NCBI RefSeq assembly: GCF_045037415.1
Contig: NZ_CP173439.1
Direction: 5' to 3' (one strand)
DNA: 64,000 nucleotides
Source of the DNA: Escherichia coli
Lineage (GTDB): Bacteria > Pseudomonadota > Gammaproteobacteria > Enterobacterales > Enterobacteriaceae
Shown piece after piece: positions 2,245-44,477 of this stretch; position 1 is the stretch's first letter; the number at the start of each line of letters is the position of its first letter. The position numbers were made by a program, and so were the translations under genes. Below the pieces are notes generated by a model, which was not told the DNA's origin, made no database searches, and was given only the letters and a program-made list of their open reading frames with translations.

Positions 2245-2514
2245 ATGGATGAAAAAGTATACTTTCGCCTCAGCTATGAAACGATGACCGGCGATACGGA
2301 AGACTTCATTAACGCATGTATTGAACGGGCAAACCGTGCGGACTGCAACGATACCGATGCGGAGATTGCCCGCGCACGCAGCACCATTGAACTCTGGTAC
2401 TGTCTGGCACTCGCGGGGCGTGCCCCAGACGACGTCGCCGACAGGGATCATCTGCGGTTCACCGAAATGCTCCTGCGCGCCCCGACAGCAGAACAACGCG
2501 CATGTCAGCTGTAA
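2245..2514 (+). CDS. hypothetical protein (high-GC gene)
   Basis: 89-aa ORF divergent from ccdA; noticeably GC-rich relative to neighbours; no recognisable family. Confidence 0.35.
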   Translation: MDEKVYFRLSYETMTGDTEDFINACIERANRADCNDTDAEIARARSTIELWYCLALAGRAPDDVADRDHLRFTEMLLRAPTAEQRACQL

Positions 2515-3098
2515 CCTCCCGTGGGCCGTCGCCGCTGCAACGACGGGTGCTGATTGTGCTGGCTGCCCTTGATGAAAAACGGCCTGGCCCCGTGCTGACT
2601 CGGGACATAGAACGGGTGCTGGAGCGAAGCGGGGAAGCCCCGGTCTACGGACCAAACCTGCGCGCCTCCTGCCGGCGCATGGAAGCATCAGGCTGGCTTC
2701 GCACACTGCGCGCCCCGAATCTGCAGCTGGCTGTCGAACTGACGGACGCCGGCCGGGCCGTGGCACAGCCTCTGCTGCTGGCAGAACAGGACCGCCTCCG
2801 GGCAAAACAGCGCGCGGCAGAAGTCGTCGTACTGCCGCTGGTCCCGGCATCAGGTCTGCCCGCAGACGGCACTTCTGCCACTGATCTGGCGGTGGAGCTG
2901 AACGGCATGACGTATCAGGCCTGCCGTGGGGATTTTGTGGTACGTCTCGACGGCAGCACCTGTCTGCAGTTATGGAACAGAGAAGGCAAGGTGGTACGCC
3001 GGGAGGGCGATCCGCTGGAAGTGGCGCAGTGGCTGCAGGCCTGTCATGATGCCGGAATAAAAGTTCGTGTACAGGTTAATGAAAGTATCACCCCGTAA
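2502..3098 (+). CDS. hypothetical protein, possible winged-helix N-terminus
   Basis: 198-aa ORF overlapping the upstream ORF end; N-terminal LQRRVLIVLAALDE...VLTRDIERVLE resembles a DNA-binding fold; GC-rich. Confidence 0.45.
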   Translation: MSAVTSRGPSPLQRRVLIVLAALDEKRPGPVLTRDIERVLERSGEAPVYGPNLRASCRRMEASGWLRTLRAPNLQLAVELTDAGRAVAQPLLLAEQDRLRAKQRAAEVVVLPLVPASGLPADGTSATDLAVELNGMTYQACRGDFVVRLDGSTCLQLWNREGKVVRREGDPLEVAQWLQACHDAGIKVRVQVNESITP

Positions 3099-3165
3099 AA
3101 ACATGCCTGCACGATTCACACATCATCCCATGGTGGCAGCCGGTTAACTTTCCTGCACCACCAGT
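3075..3165. repeat. Inverted-repeat copy A (~90 bp) bounding the AT-rich lasso island; partner at 9035..9125
   Basis: Reverse complement of 9035..9125 matches this stretch with a few mismatches (shared ...ccccgtaaaaacatgcctgcacg...catcccatggtggcagccggttaactttcctgc...). Confidence 0.6.
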
Positions 3166-3463
3166 GGAAAGAGGCCATGAGCAGTCCGAACAAAAAACCA
3201 CCCGTGATACTTATAATAATGGCCTCACCGGCCACCATTCCTGACGGCCCCCAGTAGATAAACCACATTGCACATCCCCAGGAAATGCCCCATAAGCCCC
3301 CCGTCAGCACCGTGACCTGCCAGAACGGCATAAAGGGTAATGGCGGAAGCCGGATCCCCAGCCGCCAGAGAATACGCAGAAGAGGAGGGGCATAATTGCT
3401 CCGCCACATCTTTTTGCTGTCCATCAGGGCAATGGCCCGGGCTTTTTTCTGCTCAAAAGTCAC
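3116..3463 (-). CDS. hypothetical small membrane protein
   Basis: 115-aa ORF with hydrophobic helices (LWGISWGCAMWFIYW, IIISITGGFLFGLLMASF); its last ~17 codons are duplicated in inverted orientation near 9040..9090. Confidence 0.5.
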   Translation of the reverse strand: MTFEQKKARAIALMDSKKMWRSNYAPPLLRILWRLGIRLPPLPFMPFWQVTVLTGGLWGISWGCAMWFIYWGPSGMVAGEAIIISITGGFLFGLLMASFHWWCRKVNRLPPWDDV

Positions 3464-3573
3464 AGGAGTACCTCCGTTCCATGATGTAAACGTGACACAG
3501 TTTATTGTTATTGATTATTATTATCATTATGTTATCACGCACCAGTACACGATGACAATAAAGGAGAAACCAG

Positions 3574-3921
3574 ATGAAAGCGGATATATCTGTAAAGTAT
3601 TTTCTGAAAAGCCTGATACCAGGTTTCATTATTCTTACAGTTTTTTATCTGGGATGGAAAGATAACCAGGAAAATTCAAGAATGTTTTATGCGTTCATCG
3701 GATGCATTATCAGCTCCATTACTTTTCCTTTTTCAATGAAGATAATACAGAAAATGGTAATAAGGTTTACAGGGAAAGAAGTCTGGCAAAAAGACTTCTT
3801 TACTAATCCAGTTGGCGGAAGCTTAACTGTAATATTTGAATTATTCTGTTTCGTTATATCAGTTCCTGTAGTTGCCATTTACTTAATATTTATATTCTGC
3901 AAAACCCTTTCAGGAAAATGA
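3574..3921 (+). CDS. small polytopic membrane protein, unknown function (first gene of the AT-rich island)
   Basis: 115-aa ORF with about three hydrophobic segments; AT-rich codon usage like the lasso genes downstream. Confidence 0.5.
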   Translation: MKADISVKYFLKSLIPGFIILTVFYLGWKDNQENSRMFYAFIGCIISSITFPFSMKIIQKMVIRFTGKEVWQKDFFTNPVGGSLTVIFELFCFVISVPVVAIYLIFIFCKTLSGK

Positions 3922-4456
3922 AAGGGCATCATTATATGTCAGATACCAATAAGTTTATTGTTCTGCTCAATAAACTTATCATTAACAAGCGCACTCACAG
4001 CAGCCATAATAATTGCAAAACCCAGAATACCTACAAGGGTCCCCGGCATGACGGAAAACGTCCATGCGGTAACAGATGAAGTAGCTCTTCCTGCTGCCAG
4101 TGATTCAAGTTTTACAAAAAATGGACGCCAGTTATCTGTCCAGACAACCTTACCAAACTCAGTGCTCCAGTCAGCAAAATCGTTGCCTTCAGTACACCGT
4201 GTTTTCTCTTCAGCTCTCTTCTGGTTGATGTCGGCAAGCTGGCAACAAAAATTCTCTTTTTACGTCAAGAACGTCATTTGCATGTTTTTACTCATTTGTT
4301 CTGGCACTGACGTTATTTCTCGCCGAATTTACCGCAGATTCAGCAAAGGTGATTTTATTGTAACTGCAACACCTACCAGATGACGGAAAACGGGTGAACG
4401 GATTAGAGTACGATTTTTCCATTTCGTGATCTTCACCTCAGAACCCCACCATTGAT

Positions 4457-4475
4457 GATAAAAATGATTATCATT
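4457..4475 (+). promoter_or_regulatory. Fur-box-like sequence next to the precursor promoter
   Basis: gataaaaatgattatcatt matches about 13 of 19 positions of the Fur consensus GATAATGATAATCATTATC; inner tgattatcatt is one mismatch from tgataatcatt. Confidence 0.3.
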
Positions 4476-4479
4476 CGCA

Positions 4480-4507
4480 TTGACACTTTGAAATAAGTAG
4501 TTATATT
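4480..4507 (+). promoter_or_regulatory. putative sigma-70 promoter of the lasso precursor gene
   Basis: TTGACA (4480..4485), 16-bp spacer, TATATT (4502..4507); about 70 bp upstream of the precursor ATG, which has an AAGGA Shine-Dalgarno. Confidence 0.35.
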
Positions 4508-4576
4508 TTTCATGGTTATTGAGCAATTGGTAACCAATGTAGGTTGTAGGTGTTTCATTTTCATTAAGGAATATGT

Positions 4577-4765
4577 ATGAAAAAACAATCTAAAGAAGTG
4601 AAAACCTCTGGCTCTGAACATCGTGAAATTATGATAGAAATTGATGCCTCTAAATCGACGAACGGTACCGGTGGAGGCTCCATCATTGAAGGGTCATACA
4701 CTGTCTATCGCTGCGATGGCGGAAGTGTCCCCTCGCGTCCTTTTGGCCCCCCATTCTGTCCTTAA
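4577..4765 (+). CDS. putative lasso-peptide precursor (A gene)
   Basis: 62-aa ORF MKKQSKEVKTSGSEHREIMIEIDASKSTNGTGGGSIIEGSYTVYRCDGGSVPSRPFGPPFCP; good SD; immediately upstream of the cyclase; Thr near the leader end, Gly-rich core start, Glu at a ring-forming distance, aromatic and Cys residues in the tail. Confidence 0.6.
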   Translation: MKKQSKEVKTSGSEHREIMIEIDASKSTNGTGGGSIIEGSYTVYRCDGGSVPSRPFGPPFCP

Positions 4766-4892
4766 ATTTAAAGGCTGGTCATGATTGAAATATTCACTTC
4801 TCTCAAACGAAAGCAATGAATCCGATAATACAGGTATATTCGATAAAAAGGACGTCTTTTGTGGCGTCCTTACCTTAAGGAGATTATTACGA

Positions 4893-6281
4893 ATGTCTTT
4901 GGGGGATAAATTTACATCTGGATACCGTGGGATTAATGCCTTCAATAGTGGCGTGATAAAACTTCTTGTTGCCAGAGAAAATGACTGGATTGAAGAAAAA
5001 CTTAGTGCCATTTTAACTCAATCACCTCGTATTGATTTCGAACCACTCATTGCGAGTATAGTTTTTGGGCGTACTGAGGGGAAAACTTCATTATTTAAAA
5101 ATGTGGAATGTATTGTTCCTGGTTGCAGTTTTAAAATTGACCACACGCACAATGGTGCATCCGTAAGTGAATATATTGACTGGAATGCAATTTCATATAA
5201 GACATTACCGCACGACCCGGCAGAGATTCTTTTTCAGTCTGTATCTGAAGTCGTCAACAGAAATCAAGGCGGATACTTTGTTGTGCGCCTGTCTGGTGGC
5301 ATGGACTCTACTGGCATTCTTCTCTCACTAATGGAGGCAGTTGATGTAAGCAGAATTATTGCCATAACTTATCGGTACCTTATGGGGACAAGCAATCAAG
5401 ATGAAGTATCAGCAAGGTATTTATGTAAAATATTTGGAATCAGGCAAATAATAATTGATTTTGAACCTCATTCATTATTTCATAGGCTTCCTTCACCAGT
5501 GCCTCCTGTTCTAAATATGAGAACAATAAATTTTAAAGTTTATGAAGAGGAAAGAAAGCGTATCGGAAGTATCTGTGGAGATAATTATACCCTGTTTGAT
5601 GGGCATGGGGGGGACCATGTATTTTGTGAGAAAATCCCGTTTGGAATAATAAAAGAGTTATTTTTCCATGGGAGTTTGTTAACCTCATGCCGTAAGTTAT
5701 TACAGATAGCTCGCCTTCATGGCATAAATATGAAAGATGTCTTATTAATGCATACTAATAGTATGCATTATCTTATAACTGAAGCACAGTGTTATTTTTC
5801 CAAAGATGTTATAAAAAACCTTCACTATGACAGAAAAACAGTAAGTGAAGAAAGAAAGTCAGCCCTTCAGGAGGCTATTCTTGATAATGGGACGAGCCTG
5901 ACGCTGAGTCTTACGGAAAACGATATATTCCCTTTTACAGACCAGAGGATGATAGGCTATGGTCTGAAACTCAGAGTTGAGGAGTCATTTGATACTACAT
6001 CAAAACGATTTCAATACAGAAAAGCGATTAATGACAGATATAAATTTGTATTTACCAGAAAAGATAAGGGGCATATAACAGGTGCATATCAGTCGGCCCT
6101 TAGTGTTAATAAGGACCGTGTTATTAATCTTCTGCGCCATGGGCAGTTCGCGACACACGGTTTGTTAAACTTGGAGGGGGTAGAGCGAGCAATAGAAACA
6201 AGTTCTCATGGCATCGGTGGAGTCAGTTTTATTCTTATGAAATTAATTGCTGCAGAACTTATCTTTGAAGGATATTTATAA
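4893..6281 (+). CDS. lasso-peptide cyclase (asparagine synthetase B-like, C protein)
   Basis: ORF 4785..6281 with the likely start at ATG 4893 (AAGGAG SD); PP-loop ATP pyrophosphatase motif VVRLSGGMDSTGIL; size like McjC; stop overlaps the next start (TAATG). Confidence 0.75.
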   Translation: MSLGDKFTSGYRGINAFNSGVIKLLVARENDWIEEKLSAILTQSPRIDFEPLIASIVFGRTEGKTSLFKNVECIVPGCSFKIDHTHNGASVSEYIDWNAISYKTLPHDPAEILFQSVSEVVNRNQGGYFVVRLSGGMDSTGILLSLMEAVDVSRIIAITYRYLMGTSNQDEVSARYLCKIFGIRQIIIDFEPHSLFHRLPSPVPPVLNMRTINFKVYEEERKRIGSICGDNYTLFDGHGGDHVFCEKIPFGIIKELFFHGSLLTSCRKLLQIARLHGINMKDVLLMHTNSMHYLITEAQCYFSKDVIKNLHYDRKTVSEERKSALQEAILDNGTSLTLSLTENDIFPFTDQRMIGYGLKLRVEESFDTTSKRFQYRKAINDRYKFVFTRKDKGHITGAYQSALSVNKDRVINLLRHGQFATHGLLNLEGVERAIETSSHGIGGVSFILMKLIAAELIFEGYL

Positions 6282-9034: not shown

Positions 9035-9125
9035 GCGCGGAACCCCTCTTTCCACTGGTGGCGCAGGAAAGTTAACCGGCTGCCACCATGGGATGATGTG
9101 TAAACCGTGCAGGCATGTTTTTACG
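9035..9125. repeat. Inverted-repeat copy B (partner of 3075..3165)
   Basis: Contains an inverted duplicate of the 3' end of the 3116..3463 gene (reads ...SFHWWRRKVNRLPPWDDV*) plus its downstream sequence. Confidence 0.6.
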
Positions 9126-9137
9126 GGATGATGCTTT

Positions 9138-9169
9138 CATTTGGATATAGAGAATTATTGTACGTTCAG
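9138..9169. repeat. partial copy of a 38-bp Tn3-family-like terminal repeat (tttggatatagagaattattgtac...)
   Basis: Shares the core tttggatat.ga.aattattgtac with copies at 32001, 42145 and 56465. Confidence 0.4.
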
Positions 9170-10297: not shown

Positions 10298-10357
10298 TGT
10301 CAACGCCACGATGTTTGACCGTTATTTGCCATTTTCATGCCCGCTAAGATACTTTCG

Positions 10358-12327
<1,970 letters not shown>

Positions 12328-13153
12328 GTTGATGTCCTTTCTGGTGTGAGAACCTTAAGGAAACAACATGTTGGGTGGAGCGGACAATCCAAATGGTGAA
12401 TTACCGTCTTATATCACTGGCGCTGACACGGCGTAGAACCCCGAGAAAACGAGAGCATGAAAACCCCCAGGACAGTCACTGAATGGGGGACCAGCAGCGG
12501 TAAAATAACCGACATAATTTCATAATGATGCCTCCGTTAGTTATGAAGGTTTGCGGGCTGACTATACTGTTGGTGCCTGAGCAGAACTGAAGGATTGAGC
12601 GTGTTTCTGATGGAGAGTTCCACAGGTATCCACGAGATTGATTATGCCACCAGAAACACGCTCGGATGCGTTTTAACGTTACTTTTACTGGCAGGCAAGG
12701 TTTCTTTGTTTTATTTGTATTCTGACTCTCAGAATGACTCTGTTCGCTCCATAAATATTAAAATTATCAGGTAGAAGAACTCTCTTTTGTACAACTTAAC
12801 TGTGTCTTTATGGAAATGTTGTAAAGGTTCTTTTCTTTAGCTGTATCGTATTTAAATATACTTTTCTGTAAGTGGAATCTTTGCATAAGATAATAAAAAA
12901 CAGCAAATTATATTAATGGTTATGATATCCTGGGAACACCTGATTAACTAATAAGTTATTTTAATAAAAACATCTGCACTGGCAAATAATTGTACCCCCT
13001 TCAATAGGAATATTCTTATTTAATGGCCTTGTTTATATTCTAAAAATAAAACTGAGAAACTCATCATATATTTGGTAAGAAAACGCACCGGTGAACACTA
13101 TCATGAGGCTATACTGCACTTCCTCAAATTGGGATATTATGATGCATTGATTC

Positions 13154-14588: not shown

Positions 14589-15191
14589 TTAAAATGAATA
14601 GCGTACTTTTAAGTTCAGCTCATTATCGATATTGTATTTACCGCCAAATGAACGCTCATAGTCGATGCCAACACGGGTGTTTTTGCCAAGCTCAAATGCA
14701 AGGCGAGCTCCAACAAGTACTCGGCTGTCATGCCCGAATTTGACGGTTGTCTCGTTATAAGCATCACTGAGAATAGTTTGATTATCATTCAATATATCAA
14801 ACTGGTAACTTGTGTCTATCTTTGCTACTATTGACCAGTCCTTACCAGTGAGTTTTCTGGCAAAATCAACACCAGTACGACCGACAAGTACATTATAATC
14901 CTTGTTATCAATAACGGTTTGATTAGCCAGATTTTGTTTACTACCTCCAATCCGTCCATAAGTAAGTTCAAACTGAGACTCAATAAACATTTCATTACTC
15001 AGTCCCCAGCGATATCCTATTTCAGCGTCTGCATAATATGAATTTGTGCTGAAGTTCTCTTTGTCTCTTGGACTTAAATAGCTATAAACGTTTGTTGAAT
15101 GGATGTATTTAGCGATAAAATCAGTATAAAAACCGTTATCAAAGAAGATGGACGTATACCCACCCAGACCATAGCTTTTAGTATCGCCATA
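14589..15191 (-). pseudogene. autotransporter beta-barrel domain, 3' fragment (ends ...LNLKVRYSF)
   Basis: Translation continues upstream of the annotated Met without a start and is cut by the IS911 end at 15192; C-terminal aromatic residue typical of outer-membrane beta-barrels; 5' part found at 43915..44477. Confidence 0.6.
15067..15191. repeat. 125-bp direct repeat copy A (partner 43915..44039), internal to the split autotransporter gene
   Basis: Identical stretch cttggacttaaatagctataaacg...agtatcgccata found at both positions. Confidence 0.75.
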
Positions 15192-15545: not shown

Positions 15546-16233
15546 AAACATGGGGTTGCGGAGGTTTTTTGAATGAGACGAACATTTACAGCAGAGGAAA
15601 AAGCCTCTGTTTTTGAACTATGGAAGAACGGAACAGGCTTCAGTGAAATAGCGAATATCCTGGGTTCAAAACCCGGAACGATCTTCACTATGTTAAGGGA
15701 TACTGGCGGCATAAAACCCCATGAGCGTAAGCGGGCTGTAGCTCACCTGACACTGTCTGAGCGCGAGGAGATACGAGCTGGTTTGTCAGCCAACATAAGC
15801 ATTCGTGCGATAGCTACTGCGCTGAATCGCAGTCCTTCGACGATCTCACGTGAAGTTCAGCGTAATCGGGGCAGACGCTATTACAAAGCTGTTGATGCTA
15901 ATAACCGAGCCAACAGAATGGCGAAAAGGCCAAAACCGTGCTTACTGGATCAAAATTTACCATTGCGAAAGCTTGTTCTGGAAAAGCTGGAGATGAAATG
16001 GTCTCCAGAGCAAATATCAGGATGGTTAAGGCGAACAAAACCACGTCAAAAAACGCTGCGAATATCACCTGAGACAATTTATAAAACGCTGTACTTTCGT
16101 AGCCGTGAAGCGCTACACCACCTGAATATACAGCATCTGCGACGGTCGCATAGCCTTCGCCATGGCAGGCGTCATACCCGCAAAGGCGAAAGAGGTACGA
16201 TTAACATAGTGAACGGAACACCAATTCACCGAG
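15509..16233 (+). mobile_element. IS30 fragment (left end and 5' two-thirds of the transposase)
   Basis: ATTCAATTGGTCAACGCAACAGTTATGTG end sequence; transposase matches IS30 InsI for ~220 aa, then diverges after ...NGTPIH. Confidence 0.7.
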
Positions 16234-16317: not shown

Positions 16318-16683
16318 ATGTCCCGTTCAGCTAAACCCCGTAAACGAAAACCTGCCCCTCAAAGAAGCAAACTTCCCCGCTATGTCGTGAAGCTTCACGA
16401 CGATGACTTCTTTGACGAAGAAGACGCAGAAGCTCTGCGCTTTGATAATTTTGACGATGCCGTTGAGTGCTGCGCAGACCTGAATATTCCCTTCTTTGTG
16501 GATGCCGGAAACAAAAAGCTGGTCTTCTGGTTTGTACGTGTTGATGACGAAGGGTATCCTGAAATAGCCCGCTGCACGGAGCGGGAGTTTGCGACCATTC
16601 TTGCCGGTATCAGCGCCGGCGGCATGTACTGCCCGGAGTGTGGCACGGTTCACTGGCCGGACGGAGTCCCCCCGCCCTTCTGA
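16318..16683 (+). CDS. IS91 ORF121
   Basis: 121-aa ORF immediately upstream of and overlapping the IS91-family transposase. Confidence 0.65.
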   Translation: MSRSAKPRKRKPAPQRSKLPRYVVKLHDDDFFDEEDAEALRFDNFDDAVECCADLNIPFFVDAGNKKLVFWFVRVDDEGYPEIARCTEREFATILAGISAGGMYCPECGTVHWPDGVPPPF

Positions 16684-17870
16684 TGCTTCCCCGTTTTGCC
16701 GACATTTTTCAGCAGGGAAACCGCTGGCTAAACTGGCTGGAGAAACAACCGGAAGGTTCAGTGCGTCCGGTAGTCATTGAGTCTGTGACAAAAATCATGG
16801 CCTGCGGGACCACGCTGATGGGGTACACACAGTGGTGCTGTTCATCTCCGGACTGCAGCCACATAAAAAAGGTCTGCTTCCGGTGTAAAAGTCGCTCCTG
16901 CCCGCACTGCGGAGTGAAGGCTGGCGCACAGTGGATACAGTATCTGCTGAATCTGGTTCCCGACTGTCCGTGGCAGCATATTGTGTTCACACTTCCCTGC
17001 CAGTACTGGTCCCTGGTGTTCCACAACCGGTGGTTACTGGCAGAGATGAGCCGCATTGCTGCGGATGTGATACAGGAAATCTGCCGCCAGGCAGATGTGG
17101 TGCCGGGAATATTCACGGTCATCCACACATGGGGACGTGACCAGCAGTGGCATCCGCACATTCACCTGTCGACAACGACCGGCGGCGTGACATCAGACCA
17201 CACCTGGAAAAACCTTCATTTTTACGCCCGTAAGGTGATGAGTATGTGGCGTTACCGGATAACGCGGTTACTGTCACGGAAATATCCGGACCTGGTGATA
17301 CCGGATGCGCTGGCAGCAGAAGGAAGCAGTAAACGGGACTGGAATCGCTTCCTGGACAGTCATTACCGGCGGGGCTGGAATGTCAACGTATCCCGGGTGA
17401 TGGATAACGCCACACATGTGGCGGTGTACTTCGGCTCTTACCTGAAAAAACCGCCGGTGCCGATGAGCCGTCTGGAGCACTATGCTGGTCAGGATGAAAT
17501 TGGTCTGCGTTACAACAGTCACCGGACAAAACGGGAAGAATACCTGGTGATGAGTGGTGATGAGTTTATGGAAAGGTTCTCCTGGCATGTGGCGGATAAG
17601 GGGTTCCATATGGTGAGGTACTACGGTTTCCTGAGTCCGGTGAAGCGCCGGTTACTGGAAGATGTTGTGTACGTCATAACGGAGACGGTGAGAAAGACGG
17701 CGATGCAAATCAGGTGGAGAGGGATGTATCAGCGGTTACTGAAGGTTGACCCGCTGAAGTGCATCCTGTGCGGAGGTCAGATGCGTTTTACGGGGCTGAA
17801 GCGGGGCTACCGTCTGACAGAGCTGGTCCTGATGCATGAGCCACTGGCGCAACAGCGGGTGTGCGGCTGA
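16638..17870 (+). CDS. tnpA: IS91-family HUH (Y2) transposase
   Basis: 410 aa; N-terminal Cys-rich zinc-binding region (CFRCKSRSCPHCG), HUH-type motif HPHIHLS, C-terminal CILCGG. Confidence 0.85.
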   Translation: MWHGSLAGRSPPALLMLPRFADIFQQGNRWLNWLEKQPEGSVRPVVIESVTKIMACGTTLMGYTQWCCSSPDCSHIKKVCFRCKSRSCPHCGVKAGAQWIQYLLNLVPDCPWQHIVFTLPCQYWSLVFHNRWLLAEMSRIAADVIQEICRQADVVPGIFTVIHTWGRDQQWHPHIHLSTTTGGVTSDHTWKNLHFYARKVMSMWRYRITRLLSRKYPDLVIPDALAAEGSSKRDWNRFLDSHYRRGWNVNVSRVMDNATHVAVYFGSYLKKPPVPMSRLEHYAGQDEIGLRYNSHRTKREEYLVMSGDEFMERFSWHVADKGFHMVRYYGFLSPVKRRLLEDVVYVITETVRKTAMQIRWRGMYQRLLKVDPLKCILCGGQMRFTGLKRGYRLTELVLMHEPLAQQRVCG

Positions 17871-18063
17871 GAGCCGCATCGGAGAAGTTGCGTCCATTTT
17901 CAGGGGAATGGGGTAAAAAACCATCAGTGATATACAGTATCAATCGATAAGATCCATTTAATTGACGGCGGTGCACTCATGGCACGCAGGCAGTGTTGAA
18001 TAAACATCCGTTTTTGGGTGTTTTTTTAATCTTTTTGGGATTTAAATTCCTATCGATGAACAG

Positions 18064-18330
18064 AGATGAGGACCTTCCATCATGGGCTTCGAGGCGGGCA
18101 CGCCACGCTTTTTCAGCCAGTTCATTATCGAACAGGCTTGCCAGATTCAGTAGCAGCGGGTAACGAAAGGGGGTCCAGTAGGCAACCCTGGGCACTGCAG
18201 GATTCATCCCCTGATCGAAGAACGAAATAATGGCGTGATCCCGTTTAACGACCTGCCAGACATCAAACCGTATCCGGTGCTTCTTCTGCAGGACAAGCAG
18301 CGTATCAACCACCTCATCAAGGCGGTGCAT
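18064..18330 (-). pseudogene. N-terminal fragment of an unknown gene truncated by IS91
   Basis: ORF 17977..18330 runs into IS91 sequence; only ~89 codons lie outside the IS. Confidence 0.3.
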
Positions 18331-18361
18331 GCCAAGCTCTGCGGCGTGCAGACGCTGTACT

Positions 18362-18385
18362 TGTCAACGCCACGATCTTTGACCG
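18362..18385. repeat. solo IS21-like terminal repeat remnant
   Basis: TGTCAACGCCACGATCTTTGACCG matches the first 23 bp of the IS21-like copies with one mismatch, then diverges. Confidence 0.4.
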
Positions 18386-19117
18386 TCTTATATCGACAGA
18401 GTTATCCGGCATGGTGTCAATCCGTTCACAATTTTTCCATCGGAGCAGCCTACCACCGGTGATAACCAGACTTTGCCTGTAGTTTGTATACACAATCCCT
18501 GGCATTGAAACACGCATATGAGGTGTACTTCGGAATATGACCGTGCGCTCAGGAAGTACGGCAGATTCCGTCAAAAATTACCTGTAAAGACAGACTTCAG
18601 AAAAAACAGTGCTCGCCGCAGACCGGTGACCGGGCGAAGCCCGCGAACCGGCGAGGAAGCGCAATATATCTGTAGTTACAGTGAGCAGGTACGCCCTGAA
18701 GCCCTTATAAGCGGTTGTGTATGCTGTTTCCCTGGGATGATTTATCCACATATCCGGAGGCTCGATCCAGTAAACAGATCCATGAATGATCAACAAAGGA
18801 TCCATTAAAGATCCCCATATCGCTGCAAACCTTGTCACTCATGGGCCGGGACCACGATCACATAAGCTGTGGCATGTTACTGATAAACAGTAACATGCTA
18901 ATGATAAGCTGTATTCAGTAATCCATATACTGAAGTAAGTTAATGACATAAACTATGGTCAGTACGCCAGACTCAGTTGTTAAATACAGGCTGCAGGTTT
19001 TTCTTCAGTCAGTTAGCGGAGTTCTGACACACGATTTTCTGTTTATTCTTTTACTGTCCACAGGCTGGAGGCTTTCTGGAAAACGAAAATTCAGACATCA
19101 AAAAACTGTTCGGCGAG

Positions 19118-20095
19118 GTGGATAAGTCGTCCGGTGAGCTGGTGACACTGACACCAAACAATAACAACACCGTACAACCTGTGGCGCTGATGCGTCTGGG
19201 CGTCTTTGTACCTACCCTTAAGTCACTGAAGAACAGTAAAAAAAATACACTGTCACGCACCGATGCCACGGAAGAACTGACGCGTCTTTCTCTGGCCCGT
19301 GCAGAAGGATTCGATAAGGTTGAGATCACCGGCCCCCGCCTGGATATGGATAACGATTTCAAGACCTGGGTGGGGATCATTCATTCCTTTGCCCGCCATA
19401 ACGTAATTGGTGACAAAGTGGAACTGCCTTTTGTCGAGTTTGCAAAACTGTGTGGTATACCTTCAAGCCAGTCATCCCGCAGGCTGCGTGAGCGTATCAG
19501 CCCTTCCCTGAAGCGCATTGCCGGTACCGTGATTTCGTTTTCCCGTACCGATGAGAAGCACACCCGGGAATATATCACCCATCTGGTACAGTCAGCCTAC
19601 TACGATACTGAGCGGGATATTGTGCAGTTACAGGCCGATCCCCGCCTGTTTGAACTGTACCAGTTTGACAGAAAAGTCCTTCTCCAGCTTAAGGCGATTA
19701 ATGCCCTGAAGCGACGGGAGTCCGCCCAGGCACTCTACACCTTTATAGAGAGCCTGCCCCGGGATCCGGCACCGATATCGCTGGCGCGGCTGCGTGCACG
19801 CCTCAATCTGAAGTCTCCTGTATTTTCCCAGAACCAGACGGTCAGACGGGCAATGGAGCAGTTGCGCGAGATTGGATATCTTGATTACACGGAGATCCAG
19901 CGGGGGCGGACAAAATTCTTCTGTATTCACTACCGGCGTCCCCGGTTAAAAGCGCCGAATGATGAGAGTAAGGAAAATCCGTTGCCACCTTCACCTGCGG
20001 AAAAAGTCAGTCCGGAGATGGCGGAGAAGCTTGCCCTGCTTGAGAAACTGGGCATCACGCTGGATGACCTGGAAAAACTCTTCAAATCCCGCTGA
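19118..20095 (+). CDS. repA: RepFIB replication initiator RepA
   Basis: 325 aa, [30 protein letters not shown]..., matches the RepFIB (P307-type) RepA as recalled; flanked by iteron-like repeats. Confidence 0.9.
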
Positions 20096-20379: not shown

Positions 20380-21120
20380 TCACCTCAGGGGAGGCAGTGT
20401 ACGCAGGATCTCCGCAGCATCCCGCCCGTCACCTGTGAAAGGCACTGCCAGCGTGGCAGCCATATCCAGCGCAAAAACTCTGGTATAAACCTCCATCGAA
20501 CGTGGATCCCTGTGACCAGCCAGTGCCTGGATGACTTTCCGGGGCTGGCGGTGATAGAGCATGTGCATGATATAGCTGTGCCGGAAGGTATGTGGTGTGA
20601 CCGGAATCGAAAAGTGAACCCCGTCTGCTTCGGCCCGTCTGACAGCCTGCTTCAGCCAGTTGCGCATGGTTTCGTCGGTCACGGCCCATAATAGTTCACG
20701 ACGCCGGGGCCGGGTGGTGATCATCCAGCTTTCCATCTGCCTGACATAGCTTATATCTGTCAGCGGAACTAGGCGGACTTCATCTTTTGGCGGGCGTCCG
20801 CGTCGCGCACGCACTTTTTCGGACAGGATCCGCACAAACGGTCTTACTCCATCCAGGTCAAATGATTCCGGCGTCAGCATCCGGGCTTCGCCAATACGCA
20901 TTCCGGTATTCCAGAGGGTGGCGAACAGCATATGGTGACGCTGATCCGGCATATAGAAAAGAAGGGCACTCACTTCCGGGGCCAGCAGGTAGGCCGGTGT
21001 GCCCCCCGTGGAAGTGGCCATTCTTCTCAGGGAGAGCGCTGTTGCAAAATCCACCCCCGGCGCAATGGGTAACAGGGAGACGCGTTCTGGTGAATTCTGC
21101 AGGGGAATGACATTGTTCAT
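20380..21120 (-). CDS. int: tyrosine site-specific recombinase (integrase family) next to RepFIB
   Basis: 246 aa; C-terminal catalytic region HTFRHSY...[14 protein letters not shown]; paralogous to ResD at 318..1124. Confidence 0.8.
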
Positions 21121-28847: not shown

Positions 28848-28908
28848 GTGTCAACGCCACGATGTTTGACCGTTATTTGCCATTTTCATGCCCGCTAAGA
28901 TACTTTCG

Positions 28909-30878
<1,970 letters not shown>

Positions 30879-32000
30879 GTTGATGTCCTTTCTGGTGTGA
30901 GAACCTTAAGGAAACAACATGTTGGGTGGAGCGGACAATCCAAATGGTGAATTACCGTCTTATATCACTGGCGCTGACAAACAGGGATATTGCGACAATT
31001 CACAGCAATATCGTGCAGGAATACAACACCCTTAAAGGGTATAGCTGGAAATGGCTGGGTGGGGTGTCAGTGGCTTTTCTGGTTATGTTCTGTGTGCTCG
31101 GATGGGGAATGAAAACAATACTCGACAGGAACTACAACGCCACAGCGGCGGTGTATCAGAAAGTTGTGACACTGGAAGATAAACTGGTGGAGAAACCTGT
31201 CACGGGGAAGAGCCGGAAAAACTGACGCGCTTCGCTTGTCCAACGCCTCACGACCCGCGAAAGAATTTCGCGAACCGTTCACTGTTTTTTTCAATATGAT
31301 TCTGTCTGCTTTGGTCGATAAAGCAGACGATAGTATTCCAGCCTTCGTATATATAACGGTACGTGCTCATCAGTAAGAGCTGGCGGTATTGTGTTATCAG
31401 GGGGAAGTTTTTTCAGATACTCACGAAATGCCTGGCTTGATGCCATAAAATCTACAGCTGCATCGATAATATGTGGGATATTTTCATCTAATTTTGTCAT
31501 GATGATTGATCTGATATTATCACGGTTCGTGAATTATAGTATGTCACTATTATTTATGCTTTAGTGAACCAGAAAAAATCCCCCGTTGGTATAGGGGGAT
31601 ATGTAAGGAGAAATAACTTCGCAGGTGTTCTTGTTTGTATTATAACGTGAAAAGAATGCACGCAACTTAATTAATCTGCCGTACTTCCTTTCAGTTTTCA
31701 AGATAAGGTTTATAATAAAACATGGAATGGAAGCAAGCTTTAAGGTTTCAGCTCTAAAATTTTTAATATCTATTAACTAGCTAGTTGTTGTCCTTGTGAG
31801 CATGTTGTATATAAAAGCTAGGATAATATCCTGACCGGAGTATTCATATTCCTTATCCCCTCTGTGTTCTCAGAGGTTTTTTTCTGTATTTAATGATATG
31901 AGCTGGAATGCGATTCCGGCCCCCCCCGTTTACATAATTCTCCCTGACATACGGCACCGGAATCGCATTGATTTTGCATTGCTAATGTCTAACTGTGCTG

Positions 32001-42182: not shown

Positions 42183-42326
42183 AGAGCATGAAAAACCCTG
42201 GGGCAGTCACTGAATGAGGGACCAGCAGCGGTAAAATAACCAGCATAATTTCTGCGTGGTCGATTTTTATACCGTGACAGGCTGTTTTTTATACTTGCAC
42301 CGATTCCCGGGCACACTTAGCCTGTG

Positions 42327-42593
42327 TCAGGCCGGCATATACCTCAGCAGACTGATATCCCGCGCGTTTTTCTTCAGCCCTGATACATTCAGCCCCGCAA
42401 TGGCCCGGCGGTATACCATCCGGCCGCCGCACAGCACGCATTCGAACGGGTCACGACTCAGGAACTGTTTCACCATTTGTGCATAGCACACTTTCGCCAC
42501 TGCTTCCGGTTTATCCATCCCCAGAGCACGGTACACCTGCGGCAGCTTCTCTCCACACACCCGGTTGGCAAGGAACCCGAAGTACCTCACCAT
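42327..42593 (-). pseudogene. IS91-family transposase, C-terminal fragment
   Basis: 88 aa (MVRYFGFLANR...FECVLCGGRMV...) parallels the C-terminus of the IS91 TnpA at 16638..17870; no N-terminal part. Confidence 0.6.
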
Positions 42594-42657
42594 CTTAAAA
42601 AACTGAACCGCCCCGGGAATCCTGGAGACTAAACTTCCTGAGAAAGAGGTAAACAGG

Positions 42658-43872: not shown

Positions 43873-43914
43873 GTTCACAGATAAAACACTCTCCAGGAAA
43901 CCCGGGGCGGTTCA

Positions 43915-44477
43915 CTTGGACTTAAATAGCTATAAACGTTTGTTGAATGGATGTATTTAGCGATAAAATCAGTATAAAAACCGTTATCAAAGAAGATGGA
44001 CGTATACCCACCCAGACCATAGCTTTTAGTATCGCCATAATAGCTGCCGCTCAGCTCTGCATTGGTACTTGTATGGGTAAATATTAAGCCAGTGTATAGC
44101 ATTGCTGATTCAATTCTTATGCCTTTGTCTGCACCGAGTTGCAGGTGGTTGTATGTATTCTGATAACCGTCAGTGCCACTCCCCTGACCGAGCATATAGC
44201 GTCCCCAGACCCCGGCTTCTCCACTGTCGCGAATGTCCCCCATACGTTTATTGAGGTTATTCATTTCTGTAGAGAAAAGGCGGTAGCTGCTATTAGCAAA
44301 ACTGGCCGCCGTACTGACTGCTTTTTTATCAGGCTCTGAGTTAAAGCCAATAATTGCCAGATTTGTACCGTTACCGTTATCACTAGTACCAAGTATCGGT
44401 GTTACGTTACTGAGCCCCGTTTTCTGGCTTATTGCCGAGAACATACTGAAATCGGTACCATCCGGTGCTTCAATTAG
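43915..44477 (-). pseudogene. autotransporter beta-domain, 5'-proximal fragment (continues the 14589..15191 fragment)
   Basis: Translation ...YGDTKSYGLGGYTSIFFDNGFYTDFIAKYIHSTNVYSYLSP then runs into the IS629 end; upstream part cut by IS5; first 125 bp identical to 15067..15191. Confidence 0.55.

Follow-up and report, generated by a model that had tools for sequence, protein, structure and literature searches.

A 37-bp two-ended IS21 scar upstream of RepFIB and its longer relatives in plasmids and chromosomes

Our analysis of the window, a 64,000-nucleotide stretch of Escherichia coli DNA (RefSeq assembly GCF_045037415.1, contig NZ_CP173439.1), identified a 37-bp two-ended sequence (TGTCAACGCCACGATCTTTGACCGTCTTATATCGACA; 18362..18398, minus strand) which is very likely the scar of a lost IS21 upstream of RepFIB, its interior having been lost via repeats at mirror positions in the terminal inverted repeats. 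The source of the scar is IS21 itself and not merely a member of the IS21 family, and the scar records an IS21 that is now absent. As a mobile-element relic the feature is ordinary and belongs to a known kind, with nothing about it surprising in kind, and its added interest is modest, lying in the series of scar sizes found among its relatives and in the recurrent use of the same breakpoint.

The two ends of IS21 can be told apart within the scar. The IRR arm (18362..18386, minus strand) is identical to positions 1-25 of the IS21 IRR at 24 of 25 positions, with C in place of the G of IS21 at position 16, and it includes the outward-facing TTGACA (18367-18362) that is the -35 box of IS21; a -35 box in the right terminal inverted repeat has been described for a different IS21-family member (PMC10122671). 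The IRL arm (ACCGTCTTATATC; 18382..18394, minus strand) is the exact reverse complement of IRL positions 14-26. Both arms share ACCGT (18382-18386), which marks the deletion joint and is present as a direct repeat across both ends of IS21 (GACCGT in IRR and GACGGT in IRL), owing to a difference between the inverted repeats in the middle of a near-palindrome. Comparison of the window with two relatives that have the right flank in common (L005 and L012) further identified GACA at 18395..18398 (minus strand) as the outer terminus of IRL (positions 1-4), and showed that 9 bp of a 46-bp form (ACTGGCGCT, IRL positions 5-13) are absent between 18394 and 18395. The termini of the scar read TG...CA. 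No istA/istB is found between them and no interior is left, the arms overlapping at ACCGT, and the sequence is therefore a scar and not an insertion sequence (IS). No target duplication accompanies it in the window, where the flanks are TACT and GAGT.

The preliminary description of this region had noted a 23-bp match to an IS21-like terminus at 18362, and this match is sound. The only other matches to the 23-mer (18362-18384) in the window with up to 3 mismatches are at 10298 and 28849, each with 1 mismatch, against a chance expectation of 0.00 (100 shuffles). Aligned with the IRR of the two complete IS21 copies, the ungapped match runs for 25 bp and ends after 18386, exceeding the 15 bp that the description had set as a minimum. 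The repeat had also been said to stand alone, which is incorrect, since the IRR arm passes directly into IRL-derived sequence: apart from the scar, the two IS21 IRLs are the only places in the window that contain the 12-mer CCGTCTTATATC, for which 0.00 occurrences are expected by chance.

Longer forms of the scar are carried by related plasmids and genomes. The 46-bp parent form, TGTCAACGCCACGAT(G/C/T)TTTGACCGTCTTATATCACTGGCGCTGACA, is present at loci L005, L006, L009-L012 and L016-L033; it consists of IRR 1-25 and a complete IRL 21-1 joined at the shared ACCGT, and is carried as TGTCAACGCCACGATCTTTGACCGTCTTATATCACTGGCGCTGACA by Escherichia fergusonii pRHB32-C16_2 (L005) and Escherichia albertii pEA40_2 (L006). 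It is followed by the right flank of the window in L005 and L012 and has other flanks in L006, L009, L011 and L016-L033. The full 46-mer was found in 117 plasmid records and some form of the scar in 677 matching records. A scan for the joint in one genome per species returned a single match, a contig misbinned as 'Collinsella' with the same plasmid junction. The 46-mer folds into a modest hairpin (-7.9 kcal/mol, z = -2.5), which the 37-mer cannot form.

Furthermore, alleles of 52, 50 and 46 bp with identical flanks are directly visible in different strains at one chromosomal site of E. coli (L038, L039, L040 and L011), where a YadA-like gene is joined to the scar and an IS110 remnant lies on the opposite side. 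In the 52-bp form, IRR 1-27 is joined to IRL 25-1 at TTA, reading ...ACCGTTACCGT... These alleles of a single locus, with their TTA and ACCGT joints, show that shrinkage occurred in situ. The scar is a recurrent product of IS21 loss which shrinks in steps and reaches 46 bp when the ACCGT copies collapse. The left and right flanks of the chromosomal site are non-contiguous in other genomes, and therefore this scar, too, lies at a rearrangement joint. Another form, of 53 bp and with a TGACCGT duplication, was found in pCFSAN004181P (L014) at 1977-2029, near the terminus and inside an IS91-like element, the end of which is similar to 18000-18056 of the window. It is flanked by a 4-bp duplication (ATAC), which shows that a scar can occupy a simple IS21 insertion site; no filled, IS21-occupied version of this site was found, the scar being present in 9/9 records with that flank. 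L014 is the only one of about 3 independent loci with a target duplication, and none was found at the scars of the RepFIB locus. Nearly all copies belong to a single plasmid locus, a single chromosomal locus or the one IS91-like context, as judged from searches with 28-nt words or the 46-bp joint, which forms of 50-53 bp at the RepFIB locus would escape.

Two complete IS21 copies of 2131 bp reside in the window on the minus strand, copy 1 at 10298..12428 (IRR at 10298, IRL at 12428) and copy 2, different at 3 positions, at 28849..30979, and both have the same orientation as the scar. Identical DNA in RefSeq is labeled by PGAP as 'IS21-like element IS21 family' (istA/istB). Since their genes are on the minus strand, the low-coordinate end of each is the istB-side end, IRR. 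Both have the same in-frame stop at istA codon 300 (leaving ORFs of 299 aa and 85 aa), and no target duplication was observed at copy 1 (TAAG / CGGC) or copy 2 (TCTG / AACA). These resident copies are probably defective, and it was probably not their own transposition that duplicated or moved them. A full-length IS21 with C at position 16 was absent from the 1862 E. coli records searched, and the scar is therefore not derived from the resident copies.

To the left, the scar abuts a 305-bp internal fragment of a DUF3800 gene (18057..18361, minus strand). The fragment is 96% identical to residues 51-153 of the intact protein encoded by the Salmonella IncI1 plasmid p931IncI1 (377 codons), and its truncation at both ends is directly visible, with nucleotide homology to the intact gene stopping exactly between 18361 and 18362, at the IS21 terminus. 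An 89-codon gene fragment about 30 bp from the repeat and running into IS91 had been described here; this ORF does exist (18064-18330, minus strand, 31 bp from the scar), but its ATG at 18330 is not the true start, as homology to the intact gene extends beyond it as far as 18361. The stub is accordingly no gene start truncated by IS91 alone, as had been assumed, being cut on both sides. Pfam DUF3800 (PF12686) matched the intact 377-aa relative (31.6 bits, cutoff 21, residues 2-301), and no Pfam matches were obtained for the stub, for a 313-aa form, or for the 96-aa ORF at 18518-18808. With 96% identity to a DUF3800 member, the stub is nevertheless a fragment of a member, and PGAP annotated it on the near-identical plasmid pCEA106S_1 as a DUF3800 pseudogene 'missing N-terminus and C-terminus'. 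Many F-like plasmids retain the part of the gene that lies downstream of the scar, 313 codons long (313-aa version in CP077244).

The other end of the fragment is cut by an IS91-family element (traced over 16318..18056, plus strand), comprising an accessory ORF (16318-16683), a transposase gene (16638/16683-17870), and a right end at about 18056. Y2_Tnp (3.5e-40) and Zn_Tnp_IS91 (1.8e-19) domains were detected in the transposase (16638-17870), and the same gene is called 'IS91 family transposase' by PGAP in pCEA106S_1. IS91 inserts next to GTTC/CTTG. At the junction, where the intact gene reads ...cactGAACagag, the window reads ...cgatGAACagag, and the element abuts the DUF3800 fragment at the target tetranucleotide GAAC (18058..18061; GTTC on the minus strand). 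Both the two domains and the end at GAAC place the element in the IS91 family.

To the right, the scar is followed by a conserved flank ('C'; 18399..19117, plus strand), which is its constant right flank in nearly all relatives, and by the RepFIB initiator gene (RepB family; 19118..20095, plus strand). The junction of stub, 37-bp scar, and RepFIB flank was found at full length in 453 PLSDB records, and the IS91 junction in only a few plasmids. The scar junction predates the IS21 copies of this plasmid, and several hundred plasmids have inherited it together with the RepFIB replication module. Thus, the third, deleted IS21-family insertion proposed in the preliminary description stands in so far as a lost IS21 is recorded, but the event is not particular to the region of this plasmid. 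The classical F plasmid was considered as a carrier of the scar and rejected, because NC_002483 is homologous to the window only from 18499 onward. Two states of the right junction exist: in Clong, GACA is followed by ACACGA(C/G)AGA(G/A)TTATC, and in Cshort by GAGTTATC, the difference being one GACA-to-GACA unit of 8 bp. The type seen in the window (Cshort with C16 and the 9-bp loss) is the most derived form seen.

Among 72,556 plasmids, none was found with a full-length IS21 at the scar's own junctions. The one apparent progenitor, pEC012-3 (L013, NZ_CP119580.2), was rejected because its complete 2131-bp IS21 (2919-5089) is a later insertion within a 37-bp scar, in the same orientation as the scar and with an ATAT duplication; this insertion creates a direct repeat of IRR 32 bp apart. 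A candidate for the empty site, E. albertii pEA24_1 (L007), was likewise dismissed, as the DNA to the left of GAGTTATCC there belongs to the end of an IS481-family (ISKpn28-like) element. In that plasmid (NZ_CP117621.1, about 3860-4001), the IS481-family end abuts the RepFIB flank 0-3 bp from the position of the scar end in other plasmids, and two unrelated features, the IS481-family element and the IS21 scar, share the same boundary of the RepFIB flank. A literature search for IS21 remnants near RepFIB found nothing relevant.

Across 30 plasmid and metagenome loci, at least 11 different left flanks are joined, all exactly at TGTC, to the same scar and RepFIB-side flank. They include the end of a 198-aa gene, 'A', which is present in the window with its unoccupied site (2502..3111, plus strand; site between 3111 and 3112) and to which the 46-bp scar is joined at exactly this site in E. 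fergusonii and E. albertii plasmids; two junctions separated by 303 bp within a colicin Ia gene; two separated by 342 bp within DUF3800; a site that lies 2626 bp to the left of A; the remnant of an IS66 tnpB, carried by a pSFO157-like plasmid; and four others. Comparison of these sequences shows that several left flanks derive from a single ancestral arrangement by nested deletions, of 303 bp from X5 to colicin, 1939 bp from colicin to A, 2626 bp from A to X2, and 342 bp from D to D2, and microhomology at the five junctions examined is 0-1 nt. The nested series looks like transposase-mediated adjacent deletions anchored on an IS terminus. Furthermore, the C16 variant is common to left flanks A, colicin, X2, X3 and D, and an A8 variant to A, X1 and X4. 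Flank A is thus found with two scar haplotypes, a homoplasy for which we see no explanation other than conversion or the same target having been used more than once. As a source of new left flanks, homologous recombination of the scar with the IRR of a newly arrived IS21 was considered and is disfavored, because A8 and C16 are retained and the exchange would therefore be forced into the first 7-15 nt.

The right flank is altered in L006 (E. albertii pEA40_2), where an inverted piece of an int gene is joined 7 bp from an IRL-like motif. In the window, this motif lies at 20750-20769 in int (20380-21120, minus strand), within a CTGACA...TGTCAG palindrome, and consists of CTTATATC (the reverse complement of IRL 14-21) followed directly by TGTCAGCG (IRL 1-8). 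The motif and the L006 joint suggest that IS21 ends may target sequences resembling their own inverted repeats. An IS3-family element with the terminus GGGGATGCGGACG was also observed in the scar, after CTT at 26-28 (L015, 2501-2528; L036, about 3000), and its junctions, which come from two different plasmids, imply a CTT duplication.

These observations can be arranged into a probable history, in which the slippage step is suggested by the geometry of the joints. An ancestral IS21 would have been situated just upstream of the RepFIB replicon, oriented as the present copies are, and would have lost its 2085-bp interior between short sequences at mirror positions of the terminal inverted repeats, with a joint at TTA giving a 52-bp scar and collapse of the two ACCGT copies giving 46 bp. 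The loss may have occurred by replication slippage across the paired inverted repeats, comparable to the nearly precise excision of Tn10, which was reportedly described by Ross, Swan and Kleckner in 1979 and by Foster and colleagues (Foster et al. 1981). In the lineage of the window, an 8-bp deletion between GACA repeats at the right junction and the loss of 9 bp from the IRL arm, at which there is no microhomology, would then have produced the 37-bp form, and the G-to-C change at position 16 would also have arisen in this lineage. A deletion anchored exactly on TGTC would have removed the first 50 codons of DUF3800 together with any DNA separating the gene from the scar. At a much later time, an IS91-family element would have landed by GAAC in only a few plasmids and removed the rest of the gene, leaving the stub. 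A transposase-dependent route of interior loss would be equally compatible with the sequences.

Several alternatives were weighed against this history. The reading closest to the preliminary description, a true solo IRR left behind when an unrelated deletion took away the rest of its IS21, any resemblance of the downstream bases to IRL being coincidental, draws on the fact that the window alone yields a 25-bp ungapped alignment to an IS21 end; however, CCGTCTTATATC is otherwise confined to IS21 IRLs, and relatives with the same right flank have a complete IRL terminus, by which this reading is refuted and its probability reduced to next to nothing. A more substantial question is how the interior was lost. 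Abortive copy-out transposition, that is, a transposase-dependent strand switch to microhomology in place of hairpin slippage, would agree with the listing of the IS21 family among elements with circular intermediates and with the observation that IS loss takes place at microhomologies of 2-4 bp and can intrude into the IS (bioRxiv 10.1101/2023.06.07.543989), and the scar joints have lengths of 3 nt (TTA) and 5 nt (ACCGT). Nevertheless, they lie at mirror positions of the inverted repeats, as expected from repeat pairing, and the 46-mer folds into a hairpin, whereas ISApl1 joints are mostly in flanking DNA, and we regard this route as doubtful, if a genuine possibility.

The origin of the many left flanks is a separate issue. 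Diversification at the scar stage is favored by the presence of the same joint in all flank classes and by the lack of a complete IS21 at the site among the 72,556 plasmids. The flanks could instead have been generated by a complete, active IS21 making adjacent deletions, its interior being lost only later, with convergence on 46 bp or by conversion. Terminus-anchored nested deletions are the expected product of an active IS, scars of the same design arose independently at the chromosomal site and in the IS91-like end, and the 52-to-50-to-46 series at one locus indicates that different primary scars converge on 46 bp. On the other hand, about ten parallel interior losses would be needed with no full-length survivor here, as well as a now-unseen full-length IS21 with C16 or A8; we give this scenario not quite an even chance. 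It is also conceivable, though rather unlikely, that the scar is a still-working pair of IS21 ends, the termini of which are cleaved by IstA/IstB supplied in trans, possibly in pairing with a nearby or abutting IS21 end, to generate deletions and inversions. Such activity is favored by the left flanks ending exactly at TGTC on one scar and right flank, by a nested series with 0-1 nt of microhomology, which is a signature of transposase chemistry, by the spanning of different left flanks by C16 and by A8, by the absence of a full-length C16 IS21 from the E. coli records, by the L006 right-flank change close to an IRL-like motif, and by the complete IS21 inserted within the scar with its 4-bp ATAT duplication. 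Against it, each arm has only the outermost repeat, compared with the two complete repeats per end that IstA needs in vitro (PMC10122671); termini 46 bp apart cannot synapse with each other; a 37-bp scar with another terminus-joined left flank was unseen in a spread sample of 60/771 matching records; shared variants could spread by gene conversion anchored on the 46-bp homology; and both IS21 copies of the window have an istA stop codon. The most far-reaching version, in which a 46-bp ends-only IS21 derivative would act as a substrate of IS21 transposase in trans, a repeated anchor of deletions and inversions, and a preferred landing site of IS21, thereby shaping IncFIB plasmids, strikes us as unlikely.

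Returning to the reading of the sequence as a relic, the scar is most likely inert today, save as a short patch of IS21 homology and an occasional insertion target, because it is gene-free, has one outermost transposase-binding repeat per end, and has no promoter-like context. Its arms retain 25 bp (IRR) and 17 bp (IRL), and in IS21 the second repeats of the TGYCCGCT type are found near IRL 43 and IRR 41/71, beyond the limits of the scar; integration by IstA of a different family member requires that each end have two complete terminal repeats in vitro (PMC10122671). A scan of 18000-19200 revealed no sigma-70-like promoter. A hybrid promoter formed by the outward TTGACA of IRR facing the stub was considered and rejected for this reason, and an in-frame TGA in the scar terminus closes the frame.

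Compared with IS21 (2131 bp, istA-istB, the type element of its family), the scar is alike in IRR 1-25 (24/25), IRL 14-26 (exact), IRL 1-4, and the TG...CA termini, and differs in having no interior or target duplication, in keeping only the outermost repeats, and in C16; it is a remnant incapable of autonomous transposition. The nearly precise excision of Tn10 is said to resemble the case at hand in that almost the entire element is lost between short direct repeats placed symmetrically inside inverted ends, reportedly leaving about 50 bp from both termini, as the scar does; in Tn10, however, the repeats are reportedly of 24 bp within the 1.3-kb inverted repeats of IS10, whereas the IS21 scar involves 3-5 nt microhomologies within imperfect inverted repeats of ~30 bp in a single IS. 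A further parallel is offered by IEE-stimulated excision of IS629 and loss of ISApl1 from Tn6330, in which a presumed copy-out-paste-in IS is removed at microhomologies of 2-6 nt and, as with the IS21 scar, the functional IS is gone while cargo or flanks stay. A strand switch during copy-out has been proposed for both (bioRxiv 10.1101/2023.06.07.543989). Their joints are mostly in the flanks and vary per event, in contrast to those of the IS21 scar, which lie inside both inverted repeats at mirror positions and give a recurrent product. The scar is also similar to MITEs and solo inverted repeats in being short, gene-free, and built of IS ends, but at 37-46 bp it is far shorter than known MITEs and is represented at three independent loci, with one target duplication (L014) and no evidence of amplification; being two-ended, it is no solo inverted repeat.

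For annotation, the 37- and 46-bp motifs provide a compact marker of an old IS21 event, and, across hundreds of IncF plasmids, they explain the DUF3800 pseudogene beside RepFIB. In studies of plasmid evolution, the scar can serve as a fixed landmark for ordering rearrangements of IncFIB plasmids, since next to it the DNA left of RepFIB was replaced at least 10 times. With regard to transposon biology, the series of scars (53, 52, 50, 46, and 37 bp) constitutes a natural record of IS21 loss at mirror-image microhomologies and raises the question of whether IstA can use a single terminal repeat per end.

Other repeats and remnants were observed in the window. A 97-nt inverted repeat (3078-3174 / 9045-9141, 95% complementary), which comprises the 3'-terminal part of gene A and the DNA downstream of it, brackets about 5.9 kb with ORFs of 498, 227, and 574 aa. 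A truncated IS30 transposase gene (15573-16229) lies immediately left of the IS91-family element, a second IS91-family-like fragment is located at 42251-42604, and a 128-nt direct repeat (15064-15191 / 43912-44039) has its copies 28.8 kb apart. The IS30 and IS91-like fragments and the 128-nt repeat point to a heavily rearranged mosaic of insertion sequences.
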